Assembly: GCA_905199855.1 (NCBI GenBank)
Contig: CAJKHY010000003.1
Location: 6,823-70,822 of the forward strand
Source of the DNA: an uncultured Clostridium sp.
GTDB taxonomy: Bacteria; Bacillota_I; Bacilli_A; RF39; UBA660
Direction: 5' to 3'
DNA: 64,000 bases
Part shown: positions 1,845 to 36,142 of the stretch, in pieces
How the letters are laid out: each line of letters opens with the position of its first letter
Numbering within the stretch: position 1 is the first letter of the stretch
Notes under the pieces: generated by a model
Database searches by the model: none
What the model saw: only the letters and a program-made list of their open reading frames with translations
Told to the model about the DNA's origin: nothing
Position numbers and translations under genes: made by a program

Positions 1845-3302
1845 TTAAATAGTTAATTTTCTTGTATATGCTTTTGAACTTGTACTGCAGTTGGTGTTTT
1901 CTTCAATATTACTGAATTGTTCATCTAATTTTGCTTGTTCTTTTTCAGTTAATCTATATAATGAGTTTGCTCTTTCAAGATCTGACATGATTAGATTAAC
2001 TGCATTTTCCATTGAGTATTCAATATCTAACATTAGGTATTTGCTATGTTCATAGTTTTCTGGATTTGTGTTAGCTGGTGCTCCTTTAGATGCGTTGTAA
2101 TTTAATATCGAATTATCTATTTCTCCTAATGTATTTGTATACTCAACAACTGTATCTTCAGGTAATAATTGAACGGCAACTTGAGCAACATCTAATAAGA
2201 TAAATTGTACTTGGTTTGATACTGATGTCGTTCCTAAAGAGGCTACTTCTAATTCTCTTACTTCATTGATAGTTAAATTCATTTTGTTAGCAAGTTCTTC
2301 GTAACTTGGTATTTTATTTAATTCTTTGATTAGTCCTTGTCTTACTTTTAAGTAGTTCTTTACATTGTCTTTTTGGACTGGATTATTTGGATAAACAATT
2401 GTCTCGGCAATTGATCTTACAAAATCATAAGATTCTCCCAATGCTTCTTCTTTATCTTTTTCATATGATGCAGATACAACACTTTGTATTCTATCAGCAA
2501 AGTAACTATATACTATTCTATCTTTGTCATCCATGATATATTTAGCATAGATACTTGTTCCATTTGATGGATTGCTTCCTTTAATTTTGTGATTAAATGA
2601 TAAATAATTTACTGATGGAATAGTTAACTCTTGTAGTATTGTTTCATAATCTTCAGCAAAATCCAACCAATAATCGTGGCTATATACATCTATTTGCTCT
2701 AGTGTTAAACCATTGATAAAGCCTAATTGAATTAATACTTCATCGTCATTTAATACAATTCCTGTTGCTAATTCAATATCATTTTTAAAGTTTTCAAGGT
2801 TGTTTTTGATAAATTCTAGTTTCTCTGCTGGAAGAAATGTATTTAACTTATCTTCAACTATAGGTGCAAATGAAGGTGCTGGAGTATTTTCAATTTCATA
2901 ATTTATTTTGTTTTCATTTGCAACAAGTGCATTCTCATCAATAGAGGTTTCTATATTTGACTTTTCTGTTCTTGTCCCTTTAATATCATTTAATATTGAT
3001 TTTGCCAAAGAAACAATACCATAACCCGCTAAAGTAACTGCAACAGTTCCCGCTAAAGCGAGAGAAGTTATTTTTACAAAATTGTTTTTTCTTTGTATTG
3101 TATAACATACTTCTGCTCTTTGGTCTCTTGGTTTTTTTCTTTCACTTATTTCTATATTTCTTAGAATATCATCTAAGTCTTCAGGATCTATATATTTTGT
3201 TGTTGAATTGATTGGTGTTTTTGATTTTTCGTTAGCAAAAACTCCAATTCTTAATTCATTTTCCTTATCATAATAAGGTCTTATAATTTTTCCATTTTTC
3301 AT
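1845..3302 (-). CDS. hypothetical membrane protein (ORF-A); N-terminal cytoplasmic ~75 aa, one TM, large C-terminal domain; possible anti-sigma-factor-like architecture
   Basis: 485 aa ORF. TM segment VKITSLALAGTVAVTLAGYGIV. The N-terminus MKNGKIIRPYYDKENELRIGVF weakly resembles RsgI-N-type anti-sigma domains. The internal segment YLKVRQGLIKELNKIPSYEELANKMNLTINEVRELEV resembles sigma-70 region 3. Own consensus promoter. Confidence 0.5.
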   Translation of the reverse strand: MKNGKIIRPYYDKENELRIGVFANEKSKTPINSTTKYIDPEDLDDILRNIEISERKKPRDQRAEVCYTIQRKNNFVKITSLALAGTVAVTLAGYGIVSLAKSILNDIKGTRTEKSNIETSIDENALVANENKINYEIENTPAPSFAPIVEDKLNTFLPAEKLEFIKNNLENFKNDIELATGIVLNDDEVLIQLGFINGLTLEQIDVYSHDYWLDFAEDYETILQELTIPSVNYLSFNHKIKGSNPSNGTSIYAKYIMDDKDRIVYSYFADRIQSVVSASYEKDKEEALGESYDFVRSIAETIVYPNNPVQKDNVKNYLKVRQGLIKELNKIPSYEELANKMNLTINEVRELEVASLGTTSVSNQVQFILLDVAQVAVQLLPEDTVVEYTNTLGEIDNSILNYNASKGAPANTNPENYEHSKYLMLDIEYSMENAVNLIMSDLERANSLYRLTEKEQAKLDEQFSNIEENTNCSTSSKAYTRKLTI

Positions 3303-3368
3303 AATTTTCCCCCTCTTTCAAAAAGATGTCTCATATTCTAGCACGTATGTTTGTATTTGTCAAGTGTT
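3303..3368 (-). promoter_or_regulatory. Consensus sigma-A promoter plus leader of ORF-A: TTGACA-17-TGcTAGAAT with extended -10, and RBS AGAGGGGGAA
   Basis: Reverse complement reads CTTGACAAATACAAACATACGTGCTAGAATATGAGACATCTTTTTGAAAGAGGGGGAAAATTATG. About 80% identical to the promoter/leader of ORF-B at 18903-18970. Confidence 0.6.
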
Positions 3369-3382
3369 TTTTTGTTTTTTTT

Positions 3383-3916
3383 TTAAAATAAATACGATAA
3401 ACCTATAATTATTAGGACTATTCCACCACATATTGTTGATATTTTTCCATATTTTTGACTTAGTTTATCTCCTATATTTAGGCCAAAGTAAGTAAATAAG
3501 GCACTTGTAAGGCAAAATGTGGTGCTTACTATTAAGTAATTGTTATTGATGATATTTAATCCTATTCCGGTAGTAAAACTATCAATACTAACACTTAGGC
3601 CAAAAATAAGGAAACTTACGATGTTTTCTAATGGTACTACTTCTTTTTCTTTGATGTTGGATAGAATTAGTTCTAGTCCAATGATAATAAATATAATTGA
3701 TACTAAGTATTTTAGGTTTAAAACTAGGTATTTAGCTATGAATAAGCCTATTGATAATCCTAGCAAGGGCATTAAAAAGTGATAAATACCGACGATAATG
3801 GATAGGATAATTTTATTTTTTTTATCAATGTTTAATGTGCCATATACAAGTGATAAGGAAAAGGCATCCATGCTTAAGCTTATGGCAATGATAAGTGTAG
3901 TAAGAAATGTGTTCAT
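3383..3916 (-). CDS. mntP: manganese efflux pump MntP family (DUF204) membrane protein
   Basis: 177 aa polytopic membrane protein with the LSMDAFSLSL motif typical of MntP/YwlD. Confidence 0.6.
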   Translation of the reverse strand: MNTFLTTLIIAISLSMDAFSLSLVYGTLNIDKKNKIILSIIVGIYHFLMPLLGLSIGLFIAKYLVLNLKYLVSIIFIIIGLELILSNIKEKEVVPLENIVSFLIFGLSVSIDSFTTGIGLNIINNNYLIVSTTFCLTSALFTYFGLNIGDKLSQKYGKISTICGGIVLIIIGLSYLF

Positions 3917-3963
3917 GTAAGAGAACCTCCTAATTAAATTTTATTTAGGAGGTTTTACTTTAT

Positions 3964-4497
3964 TCAAAATATTTTATTTAGAAGTTCTTTTACTAAAAAT
4001 TTGTATTCTACCTCATCTTGATTTTCGTTATCTAATAGGCATAGTGGGGGAAACAAAACACACCACCAATTGTCTCCTTTACCATCACCAAGTGTTATTA
4101 CTAAAGATTCATAATAACCGTCATTATATGTAATACCTTTATATTGTTTCTTAGGAAAATAATTTTGTCCATATTTAATGGTATAATCAATGTTATAATT
4201 TTTATCTTTTATTGTTTTATCTATTTCTTTTTTTAAATTATCTAAGTTATTTTGAATGGTATTTCTTGCATCGTTGATATTATTTAAGTCAATTAGGTTA
4301 TTTGCTATGTAGCTTTCAATAGTATTTTTTATTACTTGTTTTTGGGTTTGGTCTTCAATTGTGTTACTGTTTGATATTACTCTTAATCTTATTGCTGTAT
4401 CAGGGATAACGATATTATCTTTATTATTTGTGCTATCATATGCGATAAATGTTATAGTTATTGCTATAATTATTAGTATTTTTTTAATAATTATCAC
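3964..4497 (-). CDS. spoIIR: stage II sporulation protein R (SpoIIR)
   Basis: N-terminal signal/TM; IRLRVISNSNTIEDQ motif and C-terminal NWWCVLFPPLCL typical of SpoIIR; located next to prmC-prfA as in B. subtilis. Confidence 0.7.
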   Translation of the reverse strand: MIIIKKILIIIAITITFIAYDSTNNKDNIVIPDTAIRLRVISNSNTIEDQTQKQVIKNTIESYIANNLIDLNNINDARNTIQNNLDNLKKEIDKTIKDKNYNIDYTIKYGQNYFPKKQYKGITYNDGYYESLVITLGDGKGDNWWCVLFPPLCLLDNENQDEVEYKFLVKELLNKIF

Positions 4498-4533
4498 CCT
4501 TTCTAATAGTGTTATGGGGGATAATGATTTTTT

Positions 4534-5328
4534 TTATTCAGTTTTATAGATAAAAACGTAGCGATCTTTGTTACTATAGTCTTTTTCGATGGATACTGTA
4601 GGGGTATCTAAATATTTATAGGCAATAGCTTTTATTTGCTTGCCTTGATTCATGCCTATTTCAAAGGCTATTAGGTATTTAGATTTTTGTTTCATATTTT
4701 TTAGTATTTGTTCATAGAAGTATAGTCCATCTTTTTTAGCATATAAAGCCATGTGGGGTTCATTATTCCTTACTATGTCCATAATTTTTTCATCATTTGC
4801 AATGTAAGGTGGGTTACTAATAATAATATCATAATATGAAGGTAATGGTTTTGTGATGTCGTGCTTTATAATATTTATTAGAGTGTTGTTTGTTTTTGCA
4901 TTTTCTATGGCTACACTTATAGCTTTTGCTGATAGTTCGTAGGCGTCTATTTTGATAGTAGGGAAAAATTTTTTTAGGGTGATAGCTATACAACCTGAGC
5001 CTGTTCCTAAATCGGCTATGGTTAAATTGTTTTGATTAGGATAGAGTTTTTTTATGTAATTGATAGTCTTTTCTACTAATAATTCTGTTTCAAAACGCGG
5101 TATTAAGACATTTTTATTTACTTTGATGATGTTGCCATAGAAGTTAACATTGCCAATTATGTATTGAATAGGTTTTCCTTTTATTAATTGATTAATACCT
5201 TGATTATAGGTTTTCTCATTGTAAATATTTTCTTCTTGTAAGTAGTTATAGTAATAATCGGCTAAAGATTCTTCGATGTTGTGTTCTTTTAGAATTTGTT
5301 TGGCTTTAGTTATGGTATTATTTGTCAT
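4534..5328 (-). CDS. prmC: release factor glutamine N5-methyltransferase PrmC/HemK
   Basis: SAM MTase motifs DLGTGSGCIA and NPPY (ISNPPYI); overlaps prfA. Confidence 0.8.
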   Translation of the reverse strand: MTNNTITKAKQILKEHNIEESLADYYYNYLQEENIYNEKTYNQGINQLIKGKPIQYIIGNVNFYGNIIKVNKNVLIPRFETELLVEKTINYIKKLYPNQNNLTIADLGTGSGCIAITLKKFFPTIKIDAYELSAKAISVAIENAKTNNTLINIIKHDITKPLPSYYDIIISNPPYIANDEKIMDIVRNNEPHMALYAKKDGLYFYEQILKNMKQKSKYLIAFEIGMNQGKQIKAIAYKYLDTPTVSIEKDYSNKDRYVFIYKTE

Positions 5329-6379
5329 TTCCTTCTAAGGCTCTTTTCTGATTTTCGTTTATTAAGGCATCAATTATGATTCCTAATTCACCATCCATGA
5401 TGCGATCTAGATTCATTGATGTAAATCCAATTCGATGGTCGGTTACTCTATTTTGAGGGTAATTATAGGTTCTTATTTTTTCTGAGCGATCGCCAGTTCC
5501 TATTTTAATTCTTCTTTCAGCACTTTCTTTTTCTTCGTTTTCTTTTAATTTCAAGTCATATAATCTTGTTTTTAAGATTTTCATGGCTTTTTCTTTGTTT
5601 TTGATTTGGCTTCTTTCTGTTTGGGAATAAACAATGATACCTGTTGGGATATGGGTTAATCTTACTGCTGAGTCAGTTGTGTTTACGCCTTGTCCTCCAC
5701 AGCCACTTGAACGGGTGATATCTACTCGTACTTCTGATTCATCTAATTCAAAATCAAATTCTTCAGCTTCTGGCATGACTAAAACGGTTGCTGTTGAAGT
5801 ATGAACACGGCCTTGAGATTCGGTTTCTGGTACTCTTTGAACACGATGCGAACCACTTTCAAACTTTAATTTAGAATATGCTCCTTCTCCTTTAATCATA
5901 AATTCTATTTGGGCATATCCTCCAGCCGAACCTTCAACACTGTTTAAGATTTCACTTTTCCAACCATAGTTGGCTATATATTTTTGGTACATGTCATATA
6001 AATCGCCTGCGAAAATGTTGGCTTCATCTCCTCCTGCGGCTCCACGAATTTCTATGATAACATTCTTTTCATCATTAGGATCGTGTGGTAGTAATAAGAT
6101 TTCTAATTCTTTTTCAGTTTTGTTTTTTTCTTCTTCTAATCTAATTAATTCTTCTTTAGCAAACTCTCCTAATTCTTTATCGTGGATTAGTTCTTTACTT
6201 TCTTTGATATCATTTAATATTTTTTTATATTTGAGATATAGTTCTACTGTTTCTTTTAATCTTACTTGTTCTTTTGATAATTCGGTCATTTTTTTAATAT
6301 CTTTTAATACTTCTTCGCTTGATAGTAGGGAAGTTGTTTCGTCATATCTTTCTTTGATTTTTTCTAATCTTTCAATCAT
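5318..6379 (-). CDS. prfA: peptide chain release factor 1
   Basis: GGQ motif (SGCGGQGVNTTDSAVRLTHIPTGI) and RF1-type PxT region (RVQRVPETESQGR). Confidence 0.9.
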   Translation of the reverse strand: MIERLEKIKERYDETTSLLSSEEVLKDIKKMTELSKEQVRLKETVELYLKYKKILNDIKESKELIHDKELGEFAKEELIRLEEEKNKTEKELEILLLPHDPNDEKNVIIEIRGAAGGDEANIFAGDLYDMYQKYIANYGWKSEILNSVEGSAGGYAQIEFMIKGEGAYSKLKFESGSHRVQRVPETESQGRVHTSTATVLVMPEAEEFDFELDESEVRVDITRSSGCGGQGVNTTDSAVRLTHIPTGIIVYSQTERSQIKNKEKAMKILKTRLYDLKLKENEEKESAERRIKIGTGDRSEKIRTYNYPQNRVTDHRIGFTSMNLDRIMDGELGIIIDALINENQKRALEGNDK

Positions 6380-11360: not shown

Positions 11361-13238
11361 TTATTTTTTTTGAATTTTTATTATAAATTGATATTCGTTA
11401 GGTAAATCTAATTCGTCTACATCAACAATGTAACCTGATGCTTCTAAGTTATCTATTAGTTGTCTACTCATATTTAAGGCATTCCTTAAATAGTATGGAG
11501 AATATTCTTGTTTTGCTTGTGGTTGTTCTTCAAACGAAGGTGCCCCCTCTGTATTAAATTCTGGCAAGAATGGTTCTTCAATTTTTGATGGTTGAATGTT
11601 TGGTTGTGTTTCAACTGGAGAGGATACAAAAGTTGGATTATTGTTTTGTAGCGAAGGTTGAGTTGATGCTGTGATGCTTTCTTGAGTTGCAACTGGTTGA
11701 ATATTATTTACTGTTTCTTCTTGGGGTACGAACTGAGGTGTTATATTGTTTGAAATATTCTCTGGAGTTTGTTCAATTTTTTGGTTAGGTTCTAAATTAA
11801 TGTTTGAAATTGTTGGTTCTATTTTTGGTGTTTGAACACTTGGAATGTCATTTGTAGTTGGAGTTTGAATTGTATTTAAGTTAGGTAATGGCATCGTATT
11901 TTCAATAGATGATGTAGGCATTGGGGTAATATTTGATGCCATGGTTTCTGGAGTTGGCATTTCCCAAGTATTTATTGGATTATTTAAGTTTAGTTCTTGG
12001 TAAGATTCTGTAGGAGTTGCAATATTAACTTCTGGATGTGGTGTTTCTTTAGCCCCTTGTATATTTATTTGTTCAGGTTGATTTTGAAAATTATTTGGTA
12101 CTGCAGGTTGTGGTGTTGGTTCTACTAGAGTTGAATTTAATTCCGGCATATTAAATATAGGGGTAGGATTTATAGTTTGTGATGTTACTTCAGGGGTTTG
12201 TTCATTATTTACAGTATCAGGCATGTTTATTCTTTCTATATTAATTGGTTGTGGAGTTTGTGGTTGCATAGGTAAAGGCATTTCGACATTTTTTGCAGGT
12301 TCCATAAAGTTAGAGCCTGTGTTCATGTTTGTGCTTTCATCTTCTAGTGATGTGAAAAATTTGCCTGCGAATGAAAATTTTGGTTTTTCAACAGGTTGTT
12401 CTTGTTTTGGCATACTTTCATCTACTTTTAATAAATTGTTGATATCTGCAGTTTGCTCTTGATGATTTATATCTTGGGCTGATGCTTTAATTGCATCAAT
12501 GTTAATCATTTGTGTTTTATCCATTTTATCCTCCACTATTTCTGGTTCAACATCATCGAACGTATTTGATTTTTTATTTACTATATCAAGTCCTGATAGA
12601 ACTTTTTGCATATTAGGATTAATATCCATTTCCTCTACTTGTTCTTTGTTTTCTTTAATTATATCTTGGACTTGTTTAACTGTTAATCTTTCTTTTTTGA
12701 TTCTTTCTAGCATTGCATTTTCTTCCTGTTCATTTTCTAATTGAAGTAATGCTTTAGCATGTCCTTCGCTAATTTCATTATTTTGTAAAGCTTCTTGGAC
12801 ATTTTTACTTAATTTTAATAGTTTCATTTTGTTATTTATTTCTTTTTCTTCTTTAGACATTAAATTGGCTATTTCTTTAGTGTTACTATTTCCCGCTAGA
12901 TTTTGATAAGCTTTGGCTTCTTCAATTGGAGTAAGACTTTGTCTTTGAAGATTTTCAACGATGGCTAGTTCGGCACTTGCTTGGTCATTTATTTCCATAA
13001 TAATAGCTGGTACTTGGGTTAAACCTACTAAAGAGGCGGCTTTTAATCTTCGTTCACCTGCGATTACTTCATAACCATTAGGTATTTTTCTTAGAATAAG
13101 GGGTTCTATTATCCCATATTTTTTTATAGAGTTTGCCAATTCTTGTAGTGCTTTCTCATCAAATTTAATACGTGGTTGAAAACGGTTAGGTTTTATTTCA
13201 GTAATGTTTATTTGTTTTATTTCATTACTTTGTTGCAT
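11361..13238 (-). CDS. parB: ParB/Spo0J-family partition protein with a long low-complexity insertion
   Basis: ParB N-terminal domain with the IAGERRLKA motif and HTH. Then ~350 aa rich in P/T/N/Q, then a short C-terminal domain. Start set at MQQSNEIK with AAGGAGGG RBS; the ORF track extends to 13313. Confidence 0.75.
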   Translation of the reverse strand: MQQSNEIKQINITEIKPNRFQPRIKFDEKALQELANSIKKYGIIEPLILRKIPNGYEVIAGERRLKAASLVGLTQVPAIIMEINDQASAELAIVENLQRQSLTPIEEAKAYQNLAGNSNTKEIANLMSKEEKEINNKMKLLKLSKNVQEALQNNEISEGHAKALLQLENEQEENAMLERIKKERLTVKQVQDIIKENKEQVEEMDINPNMQKVLSGLDIVNKKSNTFDDVEPEIVEDKMDKTQMINIDAIKASAQDINHQEQTADINNLLKVDESMPKQEQPVEKPKFSFAGKFFTSLEDESTNMNTGSNFMEPAKNVEMPLPMQPQTPQPINIERINMPDTVNNEQTPEVTSQTINPTPIFNMPELNSTLVEPTPQPAVPNNFQNQPEQINIQGAKETPHPEVNIATPTESYQELNLNNPINTWEMPTPETMASNITPMPTSSIENTMPLPNLNTIQTPTTNDIPSVQTPKIEPTISNINLEPNQKIEQTPENISNNITPQFVPQEETVNNIQPVATQESITASTQPSLQNNNPTFVSSPVETQPNIQPSKIEEPFLPEFNTEGAPSFEEQPQAKQEYSPYYLRNALNMSRQLIDNLEASGYIVDVDELDLPNEYQFIIKIQKK

Positions 13239-13371
13239 AAAAAATCCCTCCTTATTCTTTTTTCTTACCCTTATGATATAATAATACACTAAGAAAAGGA
13301 AAAATTCAATCATTTTTTGTCGAAATAATATAAAAAAAATTAGAATTTTATGTTAATCTAACTTTTTTTAT

Positions 13372-15958: not shown

Positions 15959-16852
15959 CTATGTTTCTATTATTCTTTTTACTCTTTCTATTGATACTTT
16001 GTAATTACGATATTCGATGTTGGTTGTACCTATTGTTTCAAAATTAGTTATTATTTTACTATAATAAGTGTAAATTAAGACAATAGCACTTATATCTATT
16101 AGATTTTGCTTGGTTAAGGTTATAGCATAGAAGATAATACCATATCTACTTAAATCAATGATAAATAATACTAGATAAATAATACCTTGCGACATGACGT
16201 TAAATTTGTAATTACTTTCTAGGTATTTTGTCGTGGTAATATTATTTATTTCACTGATGGCGTTTATTTCTTTGTTACGTATTTGTTCTTGCATTTCTAA
16301 ATCTTGGATTATTTTTTCGTCTAAAAGTTTTTTTTTGTTTTTGTTATATTCTTGTAGTTCTTTACCAGCATATATTTGAAATACTAACATTAAAACAATT
16401 ATGATAAAGGCAAAAATAAATATTTTATAATTTACTAAATAAAATGAAATTAAAATAACAATAAATTCTACTAATTGTAGAAGTCTTGTTACAAGATTAC
16501 CTAGGAATGTACATATGATGTCGGTATCATTATAAGCGATGTTGGCAAACTTTCCCGAATTTATTTCAGTTATTTTTTTATTTTTAAATTTTTTACTTAT
16601 TGTTAAAAATAACCGGCTATAGTAGTTATACCATGTTTTTTGGTTTATGTAGCACCAAAAGTAGTATAATGAAGAGATTATAAAGCAGATTATTATTAGG
16701 TAATACGCTTTTTCATAATTAACATTTGTAATGTATTTGACGACTTTACCCCAGTAAATAGGGATGAGTAGAGAAGTTACACACATCATGATGGAAGTTA
16801 ATATTTTAAGTATTAGTGGTTTTTTATTTTGTTTAATTATTTGTTTTATCAT
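15959..16852 (-). CDS. ABC exporter transmembrane domain (ABC_membrane-like), no nucleotide-binding domain; possible gene remnant
   Basis: 297 aa with 5-6 TM helices and a type-I exporter TMD pattern (…SGKFANIAYNDTDIICTFLGNLV…AGKELQEYNKNKKKLLDEKIIQDLEMQEQ…). The ORF stops where an NBD would begin. Confidence 0.5.
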   Translation of the reverse strand: MIKQIIKQNKKPLILKILTSIMMCVTSLLIPIYWGKVVKYITNVNYEKAYYLIIICFIISSLYYFWCYINQKTWYNYYSRLFLTISKKFKNKKITEINSGKFANIAYNDTDIICTFLGNLVTRLLQLVEFIVILISFYLVNYKIFIFAFIIIVLMLVFQIYAGKELQEYNKNKKKLLDEKIIQDLEMQEQIRNKEINAISEINNITTTKYLESNYKFNVMSQGIIYLVLFIIDLSRYGIIFYAITLTKQNLIDISAIVLIYTYYSKIITNFETIGTTNIEYRNYKVSIERVKRIIET

Positions 16853-16944: not shown

Positions 16945-17820
16945 ATGAGGTTTGAAAAAGAAATAAGAATTGCAAAAGAAATTATGGAAAATTTTATTAA
17001 TAAATTAGGTCTTGATGGAAAGAATTTTTGCAGAATTATGAAATTTCCTGTGGTTATATATAATAATGTTATTTTTGATGGTGATGGAAGGTATGTGTCA
17101 ATAAATAATAAATATTTAAATAAGATAATTAATTCGTTTTCTTTTAGTGAAGAGGAAAAGACGAACATTTTAGAAAATGGACTTATTGAGATAGATAAAA
17201 AATATGAAAATAATCATAATTCTATGTTTTATGTAACTTTAGTTCATGAAATTTTACATGCTAATAGGGATTTGCTTTTATATGATTATTTTAACAATGT
17301 TGGGGGTAGTGAATTTTCTAATGAATATGCTTATGTTTATAAAGATGGGAGATTTTTTAAGAATACTAGTAATTTGTCTTTTGATTATGGAGATGCTAGT
17401 CAAAATATATTGAATGGTAATATTGATAGTTCTAAGATAGAGAATGCTCAGGATGAATTAGATATGGATGAAAAGGTAGCGGAAAAAATGGACAAACAAG
17501 TTGAGATTGATGAGGCTTTGATTGATACTATGTCTATTGTAGCAAATAAGATTTATAATGAGAAAAAAAAGGGGAATAAGTTGGGTATTTTTGAGTGTTT
17601 AGAATTACTTAGAGACTGTATAGATGTTAATAATGTTAAGGTTATTTGTGATATTATTTTAAGACATAGAGATTATGGTTTATTTTATTGGGTGTTAGAT
17701 CCTATTGGCTATACATATGGTGATATTCATTATGATTTTTTTAGTAACTATACTAAAAATGATGGTGATTTAGTTAGTTGTTTTGATTCTTATCAGGATT
17801 TTGGCAAAAGAAAAAACTAG
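16945..17820 (+). CDS. hypothetical protein with an HExxH zinc-metallopeptidase-like motif
   Basis: 291 aa; HEILHANRD motif around residue 100; no TM; extended -10 promoter TGTTATAAT upstream. Confidence 0.4.
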   Translation: MRFEKEIRIAKEIMENFINKLGLDGKNFCRIMKFPVVIYNNVIFDGDGRYVSINNKYLNKIINSFSFSEEEKTNILENGLIEIDKKYENNHNSMFYVTLVHEILHANRDLLLYDYFNNVGGSEFSNEYAYVYKDGRFFKNTSNLSFDYGDASQNILNGNIDSSKIENAQDELDMDEKVAEKMDKQVEIDEALIDTMSIVANKIYNEKKKGNKLGIFECLELLRDCIDVNNVKVICDIILRHRDYGLFYWVLDPIGYTYGDIHYDFFSNYTKNDGDLVSCFDSYQDFGKRKN

Positions 17821-17825
17821 TTTTG

Positions 17826-18902
17826 CTAGTTTTTTCTTTTTTTTAATCTTTTGTTCATGTTATGAAGGGCTACACCGTTCATGATTAAATTACCATGTTT
17901 GTATTCTTGATATTGAAGTCGGTTTGCCTCTTCGATGTCTTCTCCACCAAAGTATAGTATTTTAATACTTTCTTTTAGTTTTTTTAGTTTTTCTAGTCTT
18001 TCTGTTGGTGTACTTCTTACTTCGTCTTTTTTATAGTTATCACATTTTGATACTATAAATTTTTTCATTTCTCCATTTTCTTTTATTTCTTGGATTCCTT
18101 CAGTTATAAAGTCGTAAGAATCTATTCTTGATTTAATACGGTCTTTTATTTTAGGACAAAGTGTTGCTGTAGCATTTTGACAACTAAAGCATAGATGGTT
18201 TTGACTTTTAGTGTAAATTATGTCTATTAAATCTGCAAATATGTTTTGTGATAATTCATAAATTCCATTATTAATGTTATTCGTTTTGGTGTATGAAGCA
18301 AATATTTCATTTATTGGTGTATTTATTTTTTTATTTTCTAATTCTCTTATTGTTCTTTCTGGTAATCTTAATAATAAGTTAGTATAATATGTCATTATCA
18401 TTTCTTTTATCATGATAGATATTGTGGCTTTTTTATTATTTATTAAACTTTTTTCTATATATTTGACATTATTGTTAACTTTGTTTTTTGTTATCTTTTT
18501 TGTAGATGTGTAAAGACTTAATGGAATAAGGTGGTTCTGTTTTAAGATGTCATTTACTATTGTAGATGTGTAAAAACTTAATGGAATAAGGTAGTACTGT
18601 TTTAAGATGTCATTTACTATTTGTAATAGTTCTTCTTCTGTTTTTGCTTCATTTATTTTTTTTATGATGTTACTTGTTTCATTTAATGAACAATGGGCGT
18701 TTAATTCGTTTGTTATTGATTTTGCTTTTCTTATGATTTCACTTTTTTCCTTGCTAGGTAATTTTATGATGTCTTCTTGGCTTAAGATGTTTTCAAAACA
18801 TTTATCTTTTTTAGTAAAATATGGTATGAAATTACTTCTTTTTATTTTTTCTACCTCAGCAATTTGTCCGTTTTCTTTTTTAATTATAATACTTTTTCCC
18901 AT
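17826..18902 (-). CDS. hypothetical protein (ORF-B) with an internal 20-aa tandem duplication and a Cys-rich C-terminal half
   Basis: 358 aa from MGKSIIIKKENGQIAEV. The start is chosen because a perfect sigma-A promoter and GGGGG RBS lie immediately upstream; the track's longer ORF reaches 19037. Contains HLCFSCQNATATLCP…SKCDNY. Confidence 0.5.
   Translation of the reverse strand: MGKSIIIKKENGQIAEVEKIKRSNFIPYFTKKDKCFENILSQEDIIKLPSKEKSEIIRKAKSITNELNAHCSLNETSNIIKKINEAKTEEELLQIVNDILKQYYLIPLSFYTSTIVNDILKQNHLIPLSLYTSTKKITKNKVNNNVKYIEKSLINNKKATISIMIKEMIMTYYTNLLLRLPERTIRELENKKINTPINEIFASYTKTNNINNGIYELSQNIFADLIDIIYTKSQNHLCFSCQNATATLCPKIKDRIKSRIDSYDFITEGIQEIKENGEMKKFIVSKCDNYKKDEVRSTPTERLEKLKKLKESIKILYFGGEDIEEANRLQYQEYKHGNLIMNGVALHNMNKRLKKRKN
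18501..18620. repeat. 2 x 60-bp direct tandem repeat (~95% identity) inside ORF-B, in frame
   Basis: tgtagatgtgtaaagacttaatggaataaggtggttctgttttaagatgtcatttactat repeated; encodes IVNDILKQYYLIPLSFYTST / IVNDILKQNHLIPLSLYTST. Confidence 0.9.
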
Positions 18903-18970
18903 ATAAAATTCCCCCTTTTTTTGAAATATGACTCGTATTATAGCACGTTTGTTTTTGTTTGTCAAGTTTT
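18903..18970 (-). promoter_or_regulatory. Consensus sigma-A promoter plus leader of ORF-B: TTGACA-17-TGcTATAAT, RBS AAGGGGGAA
   Basis: Reverse complement reads CTTGACAAACAAAAACAAACGTGCTATAATACGAGTCATATTTCAAAAAAAGGGGGAATTTTATATG. About 80% identity over 56 nt to the ORF-A promoter/leader. Confidence 0.65.
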
Positions 18971-19021
18971 TTATTCGAGTGGGAGGAGTACTAAAAACAA
19001 TAACAAAAGAAAAAAGAAGAA

Positions 19022-20435: not shown

Positions 20436-20855
20436 TTAGATTTCATAATATTTTCTTTTTTTTACTTTTGGTAACTCTTTTGATGGAGTGTAGTTATAGA
20501 TTAATGAGGCTGTCATAGTAACAAAACTTTCTTTATTATTTGAACAGATCTTCTTCTCAAGATTTATTCCTTTTTCCTGGCATAGGTCTTGGAAGTATTC
20601 TTCGTTGATGTTTTCAAATATTGGATTAGAATAATTATATTTTTTGCTATTTTTTTCACAATATGTATATTTGGTTTCAAATTTTGTTATTTTTTGTTCT
20701 TCTTCTAAATTTTCTATTATTTTATTTATTAAATCTTCTTTGATGTAGTTAAAAGCTTCTTCGGTTTCATTTTTTTTTGTTATTTTTATTATGTGATTTT
20801 CACATAGTTGGTCTAAATATTTTTTAAATTCTTTGTTTATTTCTATTTTACTCAT
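20436..20855 (-). CDS. hypothetical protein, lineage-specific
   Basis: 139 aa, K/E-rich, 4 Cys; directly downstream (10-bp gap) of the 437-aa ORF. Confidence 0.4.
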   Translation of the reverse strand: MSKIEINKEFKKYLDQLCENHIIKITKKNETEEAFNYIKEDLINKIIENLEEEQKITKFETKYTYCEKNSKKYNYSNPIFENINEEYFQDLCQEKGINLEKKICSNNKESFVTMTASLIYNYTPSKELPKVKKRKYYEI

Positions 20856-20865: not shown

Positions 20866-22179
20866 CTATTTTGTTTTATTTTTTAGTTTACTAGATATGA
20901 GTTGTTGAACTTGTTCATCTATTTTTCTTTGTTCTTCTTCATTTATGTTATTTAATATGGTATCTTTATTATATTGTTTGATTCTTTGTTTTATTGATTC
21001 ATTGTCTTGTTTGGTTGAAAATGAAGATTTTTTTTCTAATATCATTATGATACCATAGGTGTTATTTTCTAGGTACTCACAGATTATTCTTGCTTGTGAA
21101 GAGTTAGAATTAGATCTTATTCTTTTTATTTTACGATATGGGATGTCTTTTTGATATGTACTCTTTAATGGGATATTATTTTCTTTTATTTTGATTAGAA
21201 GAGAATAGATATCTTTTAATGTTTTTTGTTCTTCTATATTATCTATATCTTTTAAGATGTTATTAGATAGATAAACTATTTTATTTTTATGATTTTGGTA
21301 ATCAAAGTAGGTATCTGTTGGTTCTTCTTCAATACTTTCTTCTTTTTCTTTTAGATGTTTAAATAGTTCATATAGGATATCAATATTTTCTTTTACTATT
21401 TGTTTATCTTCTTCGTCTAATTCATTTAATAGAGATGTTTCTTCTTCGATTTCTTCTTTTAAGATGCTACTTAATATAACAATAGTATTTGTTGTATTGG
21501 AATTGTTTTCATATATGTTATTGTTTATTAAAACATCAAGTTTTTGAATTTTTTCTTCAATTGTTGGTAATTTATCAATTTCGGTAATAAAGACTTGTTT
21601 TGCTATGTCAAATGTTAGGGAGAAGCCTTCTTCGATTAGGTCTTTTTTACTCGGTGTATCTTTTAAAATTTCTTCTCTGTTAATTTGTTTAATAGTATTT
21701 TCTTCTATATATTTAGATATTTGCTCATATTCTTCTTTGGTTAGGGGAATATTTTTAATAATGTTATTTAATTTGTTTGGTTCTAGATTATAGAGTTTGG
21801 TTTTCTGTAAAATGTTTTTTATGTTTTCTAGGATGTCTATGTCTTTGATAATTAGAGTTTCTTTAGTTTGGAGGGAAAGTTTTTTTAAATATTCTAAAAG
21901 GACATTTACTTCAATAAGATAGTCTTCTATTCCGTTTGTTCCAATTTGTTTATATGCTATATAGATTTCTTGAGCATTTTTAATGGATTTGTTGTTTTGA
22001 AAATCCGGTATGAGTTTTGTAAATATAGAATTTAATAAGTTTGTATTGTTTTTATCTAATATGCTAAGTGGTTCATGTGTATATATTTCTAAGAACTTTT
22101 CGATATTTTCTTTTAGTTCTTGTTTTTGAGTTTCTTTTATAATTGTTTCTTCTATTTTGTTAATAAGAAAATTTTCCAT
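20866..22179 (-). CDS. hypothetical protein, lineage-specific
   Basis: 437 aa, acidic/K-rich, no recognisable motif; own promoter TTGTCA-17-TATAAT and RBS upstream. Confidence 0.45.
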   Translation of the reverse strand: MENFLINKIEETIIKETQKQELKENIEKFLEIYTHEPLSILDKNNTNLLNSIFTKLIPDFQNNKSIKNAQEIYIAYKQIGTNGIEDYLIEVNVLLEYLKKLSLQTKETLIIKDIDILENIKNILQKTKLYNLEPNKLNNIIKNIPLTKEEYEQISKYIEENTIKQINREEILKDTPSKKDLIEEGFSLTFDIAKQVFITEIDKLPTIEEKIQKLDVLINNNIYENNSNTTNTIVILSSILKEEIEEETSLLNELDEEDKQIVKENIDILYELFKHLKEKEESIEEEPTDTYFDYQNHKNKIVYLSNNILKDIDNIEEQKTLKDIYSLLIKIKENNIPLKSTYQKDIPYRKIKRIRSNSNSSQARIICEYLENNTYGIIMILEKKSSFSTKQDNESIKQRIKQYNKDTILNNINEEEQRKIDEQVQQLISSKLKNKTK

Positions 22180-24283: not shown

Positions 24284-24599
24284 TATTACACCTCCAAAGT
24301 TCTTTTTTTAATATAAAATGCTATTTTATTATATAGGTGTTTTATTTTAAAGTCAATAAAAATTTTTATTTTGTCTATTTTTTTGTTATGATACAAGTTA
24401 TTTATAGTTGATATTGACATTAGCAAATAATGTCTTTTTTTATTAGAATGTTGTATCCTAAATAAGGTATGTTTCTATTTTTTAACTAAATTTTTCTTGT
24501 GATAACGGCGTAGCAAAGGCATAAGAAAATTAAAATTGGTGTTTTAAAAATTATAGTTTTGGTGTATAATGGTTTTAAGAATAGAATTTGGGTGATTAT

Positions 24600-26366
24600 A
24601 TGTTTAAGAGGATACTTGCTATTAGTAAGAATTATGCTTTTGTAGAGATAGATAATTTAATGAGTGAAGATTTGCTTAATTATTATGTTATTTTTGTCGA
24701 TGATGATAAGAAGTTTCTTGGCGAGGTTAATGAGGTAGATGGTAATAGGGTTAAGATTACTTTTTTAGGCGAATTTATTAATGATAAGTTTGTTAGTGGT
24801 ATTATTAGAAAACCTAGTTTGACTTCTAATATTAGAATTATTAACAATATTGAGCTCGATGAGTTAATGGGGACTGTTAATGATAAGAATATGGTTCTTG
24901 GTTTATCTCCTTTATATAATGATCATCCAATTAATATAGATATTAATAGTATGTTTAGTAACCATAGTTCAATATTTGGTAACACAGGAAGTGGTAAAAC
25001 ATATGGGGTTGCTAGAATTTATCAGTCTTTGTTTGATAGAAATGATATTATTCCTTTTAATGCTAATATTTTTATATTTAATTCAACTAATGAGTATCAT
25101 AATTCTTTTTCTTCTATTAATAAGTTTAATATTAATTATAATTATAAGATGTATACGACTAATACTAATAATAAGGATAGTTTAATTATTAAGTTGCCTC
25201 TTTGGCATTTAACTGTTGATGATTATGCTAATTTACTTGATGTTTACGAATATTCACAGATTAATATTATAGAGAAGATGTTATCCTATGTATGTGCTTT
25301 TGCTAAGAATGATGAGTATTCAATAAGATATAAGAATCATTTGATAGCTTCTGCAATTATATCAGTTATGTATACGAATCAAACGGCTTTTAGGATAAGG
25401 GATCAAATATTTAATATTCTTAGTACTTGCAGTACAAAAGATTTAAATTTGGATTATGAAATTCCTGGTGTTGGATATACTAGAACTTTTAGAAAATGTT
25501 TTGATATTGATAGTCAAGGAGAATTTGTTGAGCGATTACTTGTTTCTAAATATGTGGAACAGTTTGTTGATAATAATACGAAATGGAATGAAGATTATAC
25601 TCCCATTTATTATACTTTAGAGGATTTAGAGATAGCTTTAAACTTTACTTTGATTAGTGAAGGATTACTTTTAAATGAAAAATATTATGCGGAGGCGATT
25701 GCTTTAAAAGTAAAGTTGCATTCTATTATTAATAGTTCTTATCATAAATTTTTTGATTATAATAGATTTGTTAGTTTGACTGAGTTTATTACTGATATCG
25801 TGGTTAATAAAGAAAATAAAAGATGTCAAATAATTAATTTTGTCTTAGAAGATGTGGATGATAGATTTGCTAAGGCTTTAACTAAGATTTATTCAAGATT
25901 ATTTTTTAAGTTTGCTAGAAGTTTGCCTCAGCGTGGGACATTTCCTATGCATATTTTATTGGAAGAAGCCCACAGATATGTGCAAAACGATGCAGATACT
26001 AGGACTTTAGGTTATAATATTTTTGAGAGAATTGCTAAGGAAGGTAGAAAATATGGGGTAATTTTAGATTTGGTTACTCAAAGGCCTACGGAATTATCCG
26101 AATCAGTTATTTCTCAGTGTAGTAACTTTTTGATTTTTAAGATTAATCACCCAACTGATTTAGATTATATTGGTAAAATGGTTCCTAATATTACGGATGA
26201 TATAATTGAAAAGCAAAAAAGTTTGCAGTCTGGGATATGCGTAGCGTTTGGCAAGATGATGAAGTTACCTATGATAGTTAAGATGAAACTTCCTAATCCT
26301 CCTCCTAGCTCCGCGAATGCTGATGTATATGATAAATGGATGTTTAATTTAAAAGGTAGATATTAA
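24600..26366 (+). CDS. HerA/DUF87-family ATPase (HAS-barrel + RecA-like hexameric ATPase), standalone
   Basis: Walker A GNTGSGKTYG; Walker B/catalytic ILLEEAHRY; HerA-type C-terminal block GRKYGVILDLVTQRPTELSESVISQCSNFLIFKINHPTDLDYI; ~125-aa N-terminal barrel-like region. Confidence 0.7.
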   Translation: MFKRILAISKNYAFVEIDNLMSEDLLNYYVIFVDDDKKFLGEVNEVDGNRVKITFLGEFINDKFVSGIIRKPSLTSNIRIINNIELDELMGTVNDKNMVLGLSPLYNDHPINIDINSMFSNHSSIFGNTGSGKTYGVARIYQSLFDRNDIIPFNANIFIFNSTNEYHNSFSSINKFNINYNYKMYTTNTNNKDSLIIKLPLWHLTVDDYANLLDVYEYSQINIIEKMLSYVCAFAKNDEYSIRYKNHLIASAIISVMYTNQTAFRIRDQIFNILSTCSTKDLNLDYEIPGVGYTRTFRKCFDIDSQGEFVERLLVSKYVEQFVDNNTKWNEDYTPIYYTLEDLEIALNFTLISEGLLLNEKYYAEAIALKVKLHSIINSSYHKFFDYNRFVSLTEFITDIVVNKENKRCQIINFVLEDVDDRFAKALTKIYSRLFFKFARSLPQRGTFPMHILLEEAHRYVQNDADTRTLGYNIFERIAKEGRKYGVILDLVTQRPTELSESVISQCSNFLIFKINHPTDLDYIGKMVPNITDDIIEKQKSLQSGICVAFGKMMKLPMIVKMKLPNPPPSSANADVYDKWMFNLKGRY

Positions 26367-26389: not shown

Positions 26390-26735
26390 ATGAAAAAAGA
26401 GTTATCCACAGTAAAATGTGGAATAAATTTTCTATTTGTTGTCTAATTGTGTAAAAATTTGACACATTTTTGGTACTAAATACAAGAAAAAAGAAAAGTT
26501 ATCCACATAACGAATAAGTTATCCACATGTGAGGATGGGTGTTGATAATAATATACACATAAAATTTTTTTTGTGTAAATTTGTGGAAAAAAGAAGAAAT
26601 CCTTATAAAATATATAAAATATAAGTGGAATTTTGTGTGGAAAAACTGAGGATAGTTAGTATTTTTTAAAAAAATTCTTTTCATTTTCCACATTATAGTG
26701 TAAAATATAGATAGAAATCCAAAAAATAAGGAGTA
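26390..26735. promoter_or_regulatory. oriC upstream DnaA-box cluster and dnaA promoter region
   Basis: Perfect TTATCCACA boxes at 26404, 26507 and 26525. Near-consensus boxes TGTGGAAtA, TGTGGAAAA (x2) and TTTTCCACA. TTGACA promoter at 26459. Confidence 0.85.
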
Positions 26736-28094: not shown

Positions 28095-28226
28095 CTTGTG
28101 TAAAGTTATTTGACATTATGCACAAGAAAAAATGTTAAAAACACTTATAAAATAAGAGATAGTAAAGTTATCCACAGTTATCCACAATATAATCATTAAT
28201 AAAAAAATAAAGAAAGAAGGTATATT
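28095..28226. promoter_or_regulatory. oriC downstream part: two tandem DnaA boxes plus an AT-rich putative unwinding region between dnaA and dnaN
   Basis: TTATCCACAgTTATCCACA at 28168-28186, preceded by ~70 bp of >80% AT. Confidence 0.8.
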
Positions 28227-29393: not shown

Positions 29394-29462
29394 AAATTCG
29401 ACAATATGTGTGTGTTAAAGTACAAGCCATATATATTTATATATATGTTTGGAGGTGATATA

Positions 29463-29930
29463 ATGGATTATTTTATTACGCAAGAGACATTACTTATTAT
29501 GCCAATTACGAAAACACAGACTAAGATATTAGAAAATGATAATGTCATGTTTGTTGATTCTAAAACATTCAAAATTGTAAATGATAATTGTAAGTTATAT
29601 GGAAGTACTTATTTGAATAGAGTAGAGTTTAGTAAAACAATACTTAAGTGTAGATGCAAAATGCCTATAATTTTAGATAATGATGGAAATATAATACTTT
29701 TTCCAACAACTTCTAAGCGTCAAGAACATTGTGCATGGTTAAATTATAATAATATTAAGTCTTATAAAGAACAGGGTTCAAAAAACGTAGTTGTTACCTT
29801 TTTAAATGGTATTAAGATTGTTATTAATATGTCATATTATACATTTGAGCACCAAATAAATAAATGTCATAGATTAAAATTGGATTATTTGGAAAAAAAA
29901 GTTTCAATTGTATACAAAAATGCCAGATAA
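29463..29930 (+). CDS. comK: ComK-family competence transcription factor-like protein
   Basis: Blocks IILFPTTSKRQEHCAWL and VVVTFLNGIKIVINMSYYTFEHQI align with B. subtilis ComK IFLFPTLSSTRPQCGWI and TEVTFSNGKTMELPISYNSFENQV; GGAGGTG RBS. Confidence 0.65.
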   Translation: MDYFITQETLLIMPITKTQTKILENDNVMFVDSKTFKIVNDNCKLYGSTYLNRVEFSKTILKCRCKMPIILDNDGNIILFPTTSKRQEHCAWLNYNNIKSYKEQGSKNVVVTFLNGIKIVINMSYYTFEHQINKCHRLKLDYLEKKVSIVYKNAR

Positions 29931-30033: not shown

Positions 30034-33077
<3,044 letters not shown>

Positions 33078-33089
33078 GAGGTGTAGAAA

Positions 33090-35684
33090 ATGGATAATGA
33101 TAATAATTTAAACGAACTATTGAATATGGCAATGAATGACAATGATGTGGATAACAAAGAGGTAGATAATAATACGGATGTTGAGAATGTTGATGATGAG
33201 ATGGTAAATACTGATTTTGGTGGAACATTTCATGAACATGATAGTTTAACTGAGAATAATATAGTTGATGAGGTAAGCAAGAGTTTTTTACAATATTCTA
33301 TGAGTGTTATTACTTCAAGAGCATTGCCTGATTTGCGTGATGGATTAAAGCCTGTTCATAGGAGAATTTTGTGGAGTATGTTTTGTTCAGGTTATACTCC
33401 AGATAAACCTCATAGAAAATCAGCAAAGACTGTTGGTGAGGTTATGGGTAATTACCATCCACATGGTGATTCTTCAATATATGAAGCAATGGTAAGAATG
33501 GCTCAAGATTTTAATGAGCGATATTTACTTATTGATGGACATGGTAATTTTGGTAATATTGAGGGTGATGGCGCGGCGGCAATGCGTTATACTGAATCAA
33601 GGTTATCTAAACTTTCACTAGAATTGCTTAGGGATATTAAGAAAAACACAGTTGATATGACTAAGAATTTCGACGAATCTTTGGATGAGCCAACGGTATT
33701 GCCTAGTAGGTTTCCAAATATTTTAGTTAATGGAACAATGGGTATCGCGGTAGGTATGGCCACAAATATTCCTCCTCATAATTTATGTGAGGTAATTGAT
33801 GGTTGTATAGCATATATAGATAATCCTGATATTGATACTTTAGGTTTAATGCAATATATTAAGGGGCCTGATTTTCCAACTGGTGGTATTATTTTAGGAA
33901 ATTCTGGTATTCGTAAGGCTTATGAAACTGGTCGTGGTTCTATTACGATTCGTAGTAAAGCTATAATTGAGGAAGGTACTAATCATAGTAATATAATTAT
34001 TACTGAGGTTCCATATGGTGTTAATACAATGGAGCTAAAGAATAAGGTGGCAGAATTGGTTAGGGATAAGGTAATTGAAGGTATTTCTGATTATCATACT
34101 GATTTGAAGGATGGTGTGAAGATTACAATTACTTTGAAGCGTGATGCTAATCCTCAAGTTATTTTAAATAATTTATATAAGCATACTAATTTGCAGGTAC
34201 AATATGGAATTATTTTCTTAATGATAGATAATAAGACACCAAGAACTTTAGGGTTAAAGGATATTATTGCTAAATATATTGATCATCAAAAAGAAGTTAT
34301 TATAAGGCGTACAAATTTCGATTTGGAAAAAGATGAGAAGCGTGTGCATATTTTAGAGGGGTATAAGATAGCTCAAGATAATATTGATGAGGTTATTAAT
34401 ATAATTAAGACTGCTAAAACAGATATTATTGCTAAGGAAAAGTTAATGTCAAGGTTTGGGCTTACTGATATTCAATCTGATGCTATTTTGGAATTGAAGT
34501 TACGTCGTTTAACTGGTCTAGAAAGAGATAAAATTGAGACTGAGTTAAGGGATTTGTTGCTTGAAATTGAAGATTTACGTTCTATTTTGGCTTCAAATGA
34601 AAAGATTCTTAATATTATTAAGGAAGAGCTGTTGGAGGTTAAGTCTAAATATGGTGATGAGAGAAGAACTAAAATTGATATGACCGCAATTGATTACATT
34701 GATGATGAGTCTTTGATACCTGAAGAGAATATTGTTGTTACTTTGACAGGAAAAGGTTATATTAAGAGATTACCTGTGGATACTTATAAAACGCAAAATC
34801 GTGGTGGTGTAGGTATTAAGGGTATGAGTACGAATGACGAAGATTATGTGGAAAACATGATTGAAGCTAGTTCTCATGATTATATATTATTCTTTACTAA
34901 TAATGGTAAGGTTTATCGTATTAAGGGTTATGAGATACCAGAGTATAGTAGGCAGTCAAAGGGGTTACCAATTATTAATTTGTTAAATTTAGAGAAAAAC
35001 GAAAAGGTTGCTGCTTTAATTAGGATTGCTAATGACGATGAGAGTAATAATTTAGTTTTTGCTACAAAGAGTGGTTTAATTAAGAGGACTGCAATTAGTG
35101 AATTTAATAATATTAGAAATAATGGTAAAAAATTTATTACTTTGCGCGATGATGATGAGTTAATATCTGTTGAAAAGACTACTGGCGATAACGATATATT
35201 AATGGCTTCTTCTAATGGTAGAATGGTTCGTTTTAATGAGAATTCTATTAGAGTTATGGGTCGCGGAGCTGCAGGAGTAAGAGGTATTAATTTAGAAGGT
35301 GGATTTTTGGTTGGTATGTCTAAGGCTGTGGATAATCAACAAGTATTGGTTGTTACTGAAAGGGGTTATGGTAAAAAAACTGATATTAGTGAGTATCGCA
35401 TTACTAATCGTGGTGGTAAAGGTGTTAAGACTTTAAATATTACTGATAAGAATGGATCAATTGTAGCATTTAAAACAGTAAATTGTAATAGTGATTTAAT
35501 GATTATTACTAATGAGGGTATTGTGATTAGATTAGATATAGATAAGATTTCTACTATGAGTCGTGTAACTCAGGGTGTAAAGCTTATAAATCTTAGGGAA
35601 AATCAATGTGTATCTTCAATAGCTGTTGTTGATAAGATAATTGAGGATGATTCTAATGTTGATGATGAAGTTACAAATAATTAG
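33090..35684 (+). CDS. gyrA: DNA gyrase subunit A
   Basis: Active-site region [11 protein letters not shown]; QRDR-like segment [15 protein letters not shown]; C-terminal beta-pinwheel repeats. Confidence 0.95.
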
Positions 35685-35864
35685 TAACTTCTTTTTTTAG
35701 AAGAAATGTTTGTGTTTTTTTACAAAATGTATTTTATTTATTACAAAAATTGTGGATAACTCATATTTATTAAACCAAATTAGGGATATTATTTAGTTAA
35801 ATAAATGTGGAAAGAATAATTTTGTTATTAAATGAGTGATTATATAGTAGCCTTATTAAGAATA

Positions 35865-36010
35865 ATGTTTCACGTGAAACATAGTATAATCTCAATAAAA
35901 TATATAGAGTTAGTATTATAATTAATGTTTCACGTGAAACATAGTATAACCTCAATAAAATATATAGCGTTAATATTAAAATTAATGTTCCACGTGAAAC
36001 ATAGGGCGTA
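35865..36010. repeat. 2.4 copies of a 60-bp tandem repeat, each carrying the 18-bp perfect palindrome ATGTTTCACGTGAAACAT followed by TAGTATAAT
   Basis: Palindromes at 35865-82, 35925-42 and 35985-36002 (third has 1 mismatch); the units differ at only a few positions. Confidence 0.9.
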
Positions 36011-36142
36011 GTTAAAATTAATTATATGGACATATATAGGATAAAAACTAAAAGAGAATATTAATATTTTTGTGTGGATAAATTTTTATTTTTTTTATAT
36101 AAATGCTTGATTTATTTTTATAATTAATGTATATTATTTATT

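Follow-up and report, generated by a model that had tools for sequence, protein, structure and literature searches.

Gene content of the origin region

ORF-A and ORF-B, the two genes considered here, lie on the minus strand of a 64-kb window (the whole stretch of DNA analyzed) that represents the replication-origin region of a low-GC spore-forming Firmicute; the GC content is 27.5%, and not the 29% given in the preliminary description of this DNA. The plus strand of the origin region carries dnaA, dnaN, recF, gyrB, gyrA, the SRP RNA gene, and dnaX, and the minus strand carries rnpA, yidC, jag, mnmE, mnmG, and rsmG. To the left of the origin genes, the window contains argS, prfA, prmC, spoIIR, mntP, ORF-A, and fba. 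ORF-A is located between mntP and fba, and ORF-B between mnmE and mnmG, with mntP and mnmE as the respective upstream neighbors; the interval 18903-18970 covers the upstream region of ORF-B. Scaffold HF996799.1 of Clostridium sp. CAG:762 encodes products that are 97% (ORF-A) and 96% (ORF-B) identical to those of the window. Matches to the promoter pattern put the window within CAG:762 or very close to it. Related contigs originate from human and animal gut metagenomes and were labeled by their submitters as Bacilli, Tenericutes, or Clostridium.

The origin-proximal operons, which are usually compact, are broken up by lineage-specific genes, all of which are conserved in two relatives (L005 and L127). 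A HerA/DUF87-type ATPase gene (24588-26366, plus strand) lies between rpmH and dnaA. Two ORFs of 437 aa (20866-22179, minus strand) and 139 aa (20436-20855, minus strand), both without a significant family match, separate jag from mnmE, and two others (15959-16852, minus strand; 16945-17820, plus strand), with no match above the curated cutoff, accompany ORF-B between mnmE and mnmG. Elsewhere in the window, a ComK-family gene (29406-29930, plus strand; Pfam E = 1.6e-34) lies between dnaN and recF, and a ParB-like gene (11361-13313, minus strand) encodes 650 aa, about twice the usual length; ParB_N and HTH_ParB are both present in the orthologues of the latter from L005 and L127.

Three tandem 60-nt repeats occupy 35841-36020, between gyrA and the SRP RNA gene. 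Each contains one 14-bp palindrome, GTT(T/C)CACGTGAAAC (35867-35880, 35927-35940, and 35987-36000), which is followed by ATAGTATAA in the first two repeats, and perfect DnaA boxes at 35751-35759 and 36073-36081 flank the array. The window holds 14 perfect TTATCCACA DnaA boxes, clustered at 26402-26527 (upstream of dnaA) and 28168-28186 (between dnaA and dnaN), with single boxes strung along 31283-39946.

Both protein families are extremely narrow, comprising 7 clusters for ORF-A and 11 for ORF-B among 5.8 billion sequences; a profile search with ORF-A returned 8 representative clusters among 1.84 billion. The preliminary description pointed to a similar short motif at the beginning of both proteins and suggested comparing their N-termini with RsgI_N-type anti-sigma domains. 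We detected no homology between them (BLASTP E >= 0.5; hhalign probability 0.4%), which leaves the motif without statistical support, and the N-termini (residues 1-77 of ORF-A and 1-80 of ORF-B) gave no Pfam match at E <= 10. Both AlphaFold2 models were poor (mean pLDDT of 40.9 for ORF-A and 42.9 for ORF-B); an N-terminal beta-hairpin is drawn in both proteins, with low confidence in the model of ORF-B.

The ORF-A product begins with a domain of about 75 aa, which is followed by a single predicted transmembrane segment (about aa 78-100) and a C-terminal part. A segment of this last part (residues 294-351) shows a likeness to SigA regions 2.4-3.1, with which the sigma factor reads the extended -10 element, at marginal but consistent scores: 6e-5 for Pfam Sigma70_r3 (below the curated cutoff), about 1e-3 for the NCBIfam RpoD models, and 0.003-0.006 for SigA chains in the PDB. 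In the PDB sequence search, all 12 of the 12 matches at E <= 1 were SigA or RpoD chains, likewise at a marginal level. Such a segment is odd in a protein with a predicted membrane segment; residues 13-54 show a weak likeness to sigma regions 3.2-4.1.

The same PDB search with ORF-B returned no match. This gene truly begins with the ATG at 18902, and a TTG at 19037 is not its start. Inside ORF-B, a 60-nt tandem duplication (18500-18619, copies 95% identical) adds 20 residues (IVNDILKQ..LIPLS..YTST); because these residues are absent from most orthologues, the duplication represents a recent in-frame expansion.

Promoter, leader, and Shine-Dalgarno sequences of the two genes

The best local alignment between the sequences upstream of ORF-A and ORF-B has 54 of 67 nt identical (80.6%), in agreement with the identity of about 80% reported at first; the accompanying count of 44 of 56 was one short, since the ungapped comparison from CTTGACA gives 45 identical positions out of 56. 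Identity reaches 25 of 29 positions in the core from -35 to -10 and 14 of 17 within the 17-nt spacers. To place this pair among others, we compared 1378 pairs of 100-nt upstream regions from the window: the A-B pair scored 34.5 (mean = 9.0, standard deviation = 1.9) and the next best pair 20.5, making it by far the most similar upstream pair in the window. A degenerate 35-mer built from both copies matched just these two sites of the window at three or fewer mismatches and none of 100 shuffles, and a position weight matrix built from related sites scored the two cassettes at 52.4 and 52.0 bits, with the rest of the 64 kb below 12 bits. Chance and low complexity are thus ruled out as the source of the similarity by the shuffles, the weight matrix, and the pairwise scores, the former as the preliminary description had maintained.

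Read from 5' to 3', the upstream region of ORF-A is CTTGACA-AATACAAACATACGTGC-TAGAAT-ATGAGAC-ATCTTTTTGAAAGAGGGGGAAAATT-ATG, and that of ORF-B is CTTGACA-AACAAAAACAAACGTGC-TATAAT-ACGAGTC-ATATTTCAAAAAAAGGGGGAATTTTAT-ATG. The coordinates of the elements are given in Table 1.

Table 1. Elements of the two genes and their upstream regions, in window coordinates
Feature	Position	Strand	Description
ORF-A	1845-3302	-	485 aa; no family match above the curated cutoff
ORF-A start codon	3300-3302	-	
ORF-A extended SD GAAAGAGGGGG	3309-3319	-	
ORF-A discriminator ATGAGAC and A/U-rich leader	3303-3334	-	Unstructured; predicted start at the A of 'CAT' (~3327)
ORF-A -10 hexamer TAGAAT	3335-3340	-	5/6 match; preceded by TG
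ORF-A 17-nt spacer AATACAAACATACGTGC	3341-3357	-	Clade motif CAAACA; extended -10 CGTG at 3342-3345
ORF-A -35 hexamer TTGACA	3358-3363	-	6/6 consensus match
Hairpin with T-tracts	17806-17840		Common to ORF-B and the convergent 291-aa gene
ORF-B	17826-18902	-	358 aa; no family match and no transmembrane segment; CxxC-x7-C plus C motif
ORF-B start codon	18900-18902	-	
ORF-B SD AAAAAGGGGG	18911-18920	-	
ORF-B discriminator ACGAGTC and leader	18903-18936	-	Unstructured; predicted start at the A of 'CAT' (~18929)
ORF-B -10 hexamer TATAAT	18937-18942	-	6/6 match; preceded by TG
ORF-B 17-nt spacer AACAAAAACAAACGTGC	18943-18959	-	Extended -10 CGTG at 18944-18947
ORF-B -35 hexamer TTGACA	18960-18965	-	6/6 match

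Judged by sequence, both sites are near-perfect sigma-A promoters with an extended -10 element (CGTGnTAnAAT, a variant of TRTG), and promoter scoring places each of them at the top of its region. The hexamers, the 17-nt spacing, and the TG at -15/-14 were found in both; for the TRTG extension, the CGTG of the window agrees at 3 of 4 positions and the TGTG of the orthologues at 4 of 4. Transcription likely starts at the conserved 'CAT', 6-8 nt downstream of the -10 hexamer. The leaders are about 25-30 nt long and A/U-rich, and they fold no more strongly than shuffled sequences (z = +0.98 and +0.59). Both end in a Shine-Dalgarno (SD) sequence with a run of five G (G5), preceded by A-rich sequence and placed 7-9 nt ahead of the ATG. 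A search of both promoter cores for inverted repeats (5 nt or longer, within 20 nt) found none.

Of 53 ORFs in the window (120 aa or longer) whose SD was examined, 9 have GGAGG and 3 have GGGGG, namely ORF-A, ORF-B, and the glutamine-amidotransferase gene starting at 58265; SDs of the GGAGG type otherwise predominate. The third GGGGG (58250-58267) precedes this glutamine-amidotransferase/peptidase C26 gene with no cassette-type promoter upstream. The 16S 3' end, which holds the anti-SD of the clade, was found in none of the fetched loci. In the spacer between mnmE and ORF-B, about 15 nt upstream of the -35 hexamer of ORF-B, lies a C-rich, anti-SD-like motif (18979-18988, CTCCTCCCAC on the minus strand) that is conserved in the orthologues; judging from its sequence, it could pair with the G5 SD in transcripts reading through from mnmE. 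At the other end of ORF-B, the hairpin with T-tracts is likely a bidirectional terminator, which would probably make ORF-B monocistronic.

Conservation in orthologues and recurrence in other genomes

We fetched orthologous loci by protein identity. Averaged over eight genes, the four-fold degenerate sites of the window and of L001 are about 42% identical, a saturated level; at this distance, ORF-A retains 54% amino acid identity, the promoter core is identical at 26 of 29 positions, and the leader is nearly unchanged. A more distant ORF-A homologue (L044, 33% amino acid identity, with the same mntP-fba synteny) keeps 24 of the 29 core positions together with the G5 SD, and the orthologues of ORF-B (78-90% amino acid identity) keep 27-29 of 29. 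On this comparison of sequences, both promoters are under purifying selection. The leader variants of ORF-A and ORF-B differ from each other, and each is itself conserved across species; the two copies are therefore old and not products of a recent duplication, and their similarity has been kept by selection and not by recency.

The orthologues in L001, L005, L126, and L044 have ATGTG in place of ACGTG, the ordinary Gram-positive TRTG extended -10. The CGTG of the window is therefore a variant of a known polymerase contact and not the operator core for which ACGTG had been taken. What stands of the preliminary proposal of a shared module, operator, or leader is a conserved, non-chance unit of promoter, leader, and SD ahead of two non-homologous genes; an operator with dyad symmetry is not supported.

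In the distant ORF-A homologues L129, L130, L131, and L132, which were found by protein profile, the upstream half of the spacer differs, and TTGACA, a TRTG-type extended -10, the CA start, a U-rich leader, and an SD with four or five G are kept. The CAAACA spacer is thus not obligatory and could be a consequence of common ancestry or of a local optimum in promoter strength, and the G-rich SD emerges from this footprint as the most deeply conserved non-canonical feature.

To see how the promoter is distributed beyond the orthologues, one genome per species was scanned with TTGACAAAnnnAAACAnnnGTGCTAnAAT, a DNA pattern that forces many positions, which yielded at least 118 sites. At least about 90 of them belong to Clostridia, Saccharibacteria, and other groups, with varied free positions and no G5 SD; several are positioned immediately ahead of tRNA genes, and others resemble promoters of stable RNAs. 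The forced pattern fits any strong extended -10 promoter. At least about 28 sites, in gut MAGs labeled Bacilli or Tenericutes, form a discrete class. Among the matches listed, the unforced C at -24 (CAAACA) occurs in 89% of this gut-Bacilli subset versus 17% elsewhere, and the class is also marked by an A at -37, a short leader, TT(C/G)AAA, and the G5 SD. CAAACA is associated with the G5 SD at an odds ratio of 13 (p = 5e-7) in sequences that are not phylogenetically independent. A metagenome scan forcing just TTGACA, CAAACA, GTGCTA, and AAT returned mostly G5-SD cassettes among the matches listed, and added AA after the -35 hexamer and W-W-Y before GTG, again among the matches listed, as features of the class. 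The cassette reads TTGACAAAnnCAAACAwwYGTGCTAnAAT plus the G5 SD. The pattern was found in one viral contig. For CAG:762, the matches listed comprise just the two expected sites, both on scaffold HF996799.1.

Other near-consensus promoters of the window, those of mnmG, the 437-aa ORF, rpmH, and the gene at 36349, have unrelated spacers and GGAGG-type SDs, and near-consensus promoters at the same loci as the gut-Bacilli cassettes likewise have ordinary spacers and GGAGG SDs. It had been anticipated that the pairing of ORF-A and ORF-B would lose its meaning if many unrelated genes carried the same promoter. Within the window, the promoter is confined to these two genes and absent from housekeeping promoters, whereas across related genomes it does precede many unrelated genes.

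In MAGs of related gut Bacilli, Clostridium sp. CAG:762 and CAG:302 among them, the cassette precedes at least 12 non-homologous gene families, most of which have no family match. These include the ORF-A family (with L044) and ORF-B; a family of 139-aa proteins, seen at 8 loci; a family of proteins of about 500 aa that have membrane segments and occur in 6 genomes and on many metagenome contigs; the Cys/Thr-Pro-rich L059 family; and two SPFH proteins, two J-domain proteins, and several singletons. Searches of ten cassette-driven proteins from other genomes against Pfam and NCBIfam left almost all without a match, the exceptions being the SPFH and DnaJ domains, and several of the downstream proteins have predicted membrane segments. 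In one locus (L131), at 2570-5981, a gene of the L059 family comes directly behind a cassette-type promoter; next is a gene of the ORF-A family, whose product (P0025) has a J-domain-like N-terminus, and then a gene of the 139-aa family, which has a promoter and a G5 SD of its own. The adjacency of three cassette-associated families in this locus provides independent support for a functional link among them.

We also examined the folding of the leaders. Of 30 cassette leaders that represent different families or species, 15 have the G-run unpaired in a short hairpin loop (among them those of L039, L042, L049, L068, L087, L129, L130, and L131), compared with 3.1 of 30 expected from flank shuffles and 4 of 36 observed in ordinary window genes. 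The hairpin arms differ between families (for example, AUUCAAA/UUUGAAU, AAAUAA/UUAUUU, UAGAA/UUCUA, and AUAUUC/GAAUAU). By the same folding, the hairpin is absent or negligible in the leaders of ORF-A and ORF-B.

Possible roles of the cassette and comparison with known systems

On balance, the two sites are probably copies of one clade-specific promoter-leader cassette of about 65 bp that is maintained by selection and marks a small set of co-expressed genes. Host RNA polymerase with sigma-A would fire the cassette strongly, and the open, unstructured leader would allow efficient translation. The AA after the -35 hexamer, the CAAACA of the spacer, and G5 instead of GGAGG are positions that sigma-A would not need; they may have been kept because the cassette marks a coordinately expressed gene set, and they would probably be read by a putative factor, either a protein that binds DNA at the spacer or a partner, RNA or protein, that recognizes the G-run.

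A more specific form of this proposal, which we put forward tentatively and with doubt, is that the cassette is the cis-signature of a regulon that has so far gone undescribed and is restricted to this clade of uncultured gut Bacilli, the relatives of CAG:762 and CAG:302. A factor reading the spacer (AAnnCAAACA), a G5 SD presented in a loop, or both would then coordinate lineage-specific proteins. The putative set would comprise the ORF-A family, L059-like Cys-rich proteins, the 139-aa family, and J-domain and SPFH proteins, most of them without a family match and several with predicted membrane segments. ORF-A, whose SigA-like segment corresponds to the part of sigma recognizing the extended -10, could itself be part of cassette control. 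Against the cassette as the mark of a regulon, no operator symmetry was found in either core, selection for plain high expression would yield every canonical element too, the upstream half of the spacer differs in the distant ORF-A homologues (L129-L132), and the related sites were gathered with DNA patterns forcing many positions.

The chief competing explanation, to which we give an appreciable minority chance, is that these are plain strong constitutive promoters of two genes that both need high expression, each promoter having converged independently on the sigma-A and ribosome optimum of the clade without a shared regulator, so that the likeness of the spacers reflects a strength optimum or common descent. 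All deeply conserved elements are indeed canonical (-35, TRTG, -10, CA start, A/U-rich leader, and an extended SD complementary to the 16S tail), and convergence of this kind would also agree with the variable upstream spacer half of the distant homologues, with the forced pattern being found in unrelated Clostridia as well, ahead of tRNA and rRNA-like loci, and with cores free of dyad symmetry. However, the housekeeping promoters of the window and of related loci have neither this spacer nor the G5 SD, G5 has been kept across saturated divergence in place of the better-pairing GGAGG, and the unforced positions (C at -24, AA at -29/-28, and W-W-Y before GTG) co-vary with the G5 SD. Control could alternatively be post-transcriptional, with the G5 SD as the target of an RsaE/RoxS-type C-rich small RNA or of a protein binding G-runs in RNA loops, and with the likeness of the promoters being secondary. 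The depth to which the G-rich SD is conserved, the excess of leaders presenting the G-run in a loop, and the action of RsaE through G-rich target motifs (PMC6158497) speak for this idea. We nevertheless consider it improbable, given that the hairpin is absent or negligible in ORF-A and ORF-B themselves, that the stems are short and A/U-rich, that the base after the G-run varies between A and U, and that no RsaE-like RNA was detected in the window at Rfam gathering scores.

Two further explanations fare worse. A recent duplication or capture of a promoter within this genome (a "mobile promoter"), in which case the copies would be alike because little time has passed, is very unlikely. The pair does agree with the published definition, since the alignment exceeds the required 50 nt and 80% identity and the genes on both sides are non-homologous; yet the differences between A-type and B-type leaders are conserved across species, homologues of ORF-A as distant as 23-33% amino acid identity still have their copy, and neither promoter copy is flanked by repeats or mobile-element remnants. 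Almost no probability remains for an operator with an ACGTG core in the spacer/+1 region that is shared with the palindromic repeats at 35865-36010 and controls two RsgI-like anti-sigma proteins, along the lines of the preliminary description. ACGTG does occur in both promoters and in the GTTTCACGTGAAAC palindromes (35867-36000), but the window contains 23 copies against about 40 expected from its composition, and a 5-mer that is not enriched carries no information when it is common to both. The ATGTG of the orthologues, the lack of symmetry in the promoters, the absence of an RsgI_N match, and the unrelatedness of the two proteins count against this operator as well.

The selectively maintained cassette is of interest because the genes involved have no known function and are confined to a fast-evolving, uncultured branch of gut Firmicutes, in which the cassette is the sole handle tying them together. 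If it marks a regulon, it would allow a functional module to be delimited in organisms that are beyond cultivation, and it provides compact, apparently strong expression signals for the clade. If it is just a strong constitutive promoter, the case would be ordinary, yet a clean example of selection freezing a spacer and a non-optimal SD.

One of the closest known systems is the Gram-positive extended -10 promoter, for which TRTGnTATAAT is given as the extended -10 or "-16 region" in PMC5036317, citing Voskuil & Chambliss. The cassette shares with such promoters the TTGACA, the 17-nt spacer, the TG at -15/-14, the TAnAAT, and a predicted start 7 nt downstream. Unlike plain extended -10 promoters, it conserves about 10 more positions that sigma-A is not known to read, including AA after the -35 hexamer and CAAACA in the spacer, and it comes joined to a fixed leader and a G5 SD.

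In Firmicutes, regulon sites that overlap sigma-A promoters include the boxes of CtsR, CIRCE/HrcA, and LexA. The cassette resembles these signatures in that the same extended sequence precedes unrelated genes and is conserved across species, but it has neither a dyad nor a tandem heptad. A comparison by eye with consensus sequences gave no convincing match to CtsR, CIRCE, Spo0A, CodY, Rex, or Crp/Fnr, nor to the WalR/PhoP direct repeats, NrdR, the ComK box, or ECF and sporulation sigma factors. As in the targets of C-rich small RNAs of the RsaE/RoxS type (PMC6158497), a G-run SD is common to a set of mRNAs; unlike in those systems, no such RNA was found in the window by the Rfam gathering scan, and the likeness is one of analogy. 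A riboswitch, T-box, or attenuator was not recognized in the leaders, either by the Rfam scan of the window, which returned tRNA-Trp and SRP RNA and no leader family, or by folding against shuffles.

Putative mobile promoters have been defined by alignments that cover no fewer than 50 nt, are 80% identical or better, and fall inside the 150 nt upstream of start codons, with downstream and upstream coding sequences that are not homologous (Matus-Garcia et al. 2012, PMC3488235). The alignment of the cassette pair (54/67) and the non-homology of the adjoining genes both fall within this definition, and, like such promoters, the cassette forms a two-member family in the genome and recurs in other genera. 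It differs from them in showing purifying selection and in being a compact core promoter and not a stretch of 100 nt or more, and signs of mobilization were absent: both copies are syntenic and old, without flanking repeats, and a megablast of the first 20 kb of the window against two collections gave no plasmid or phage match. Taken together, the cassette is a shared or propagated sigma-A extended -10 promoter that is unusual in its conserved coupling to a G5 SD and to genes mostly without a family.
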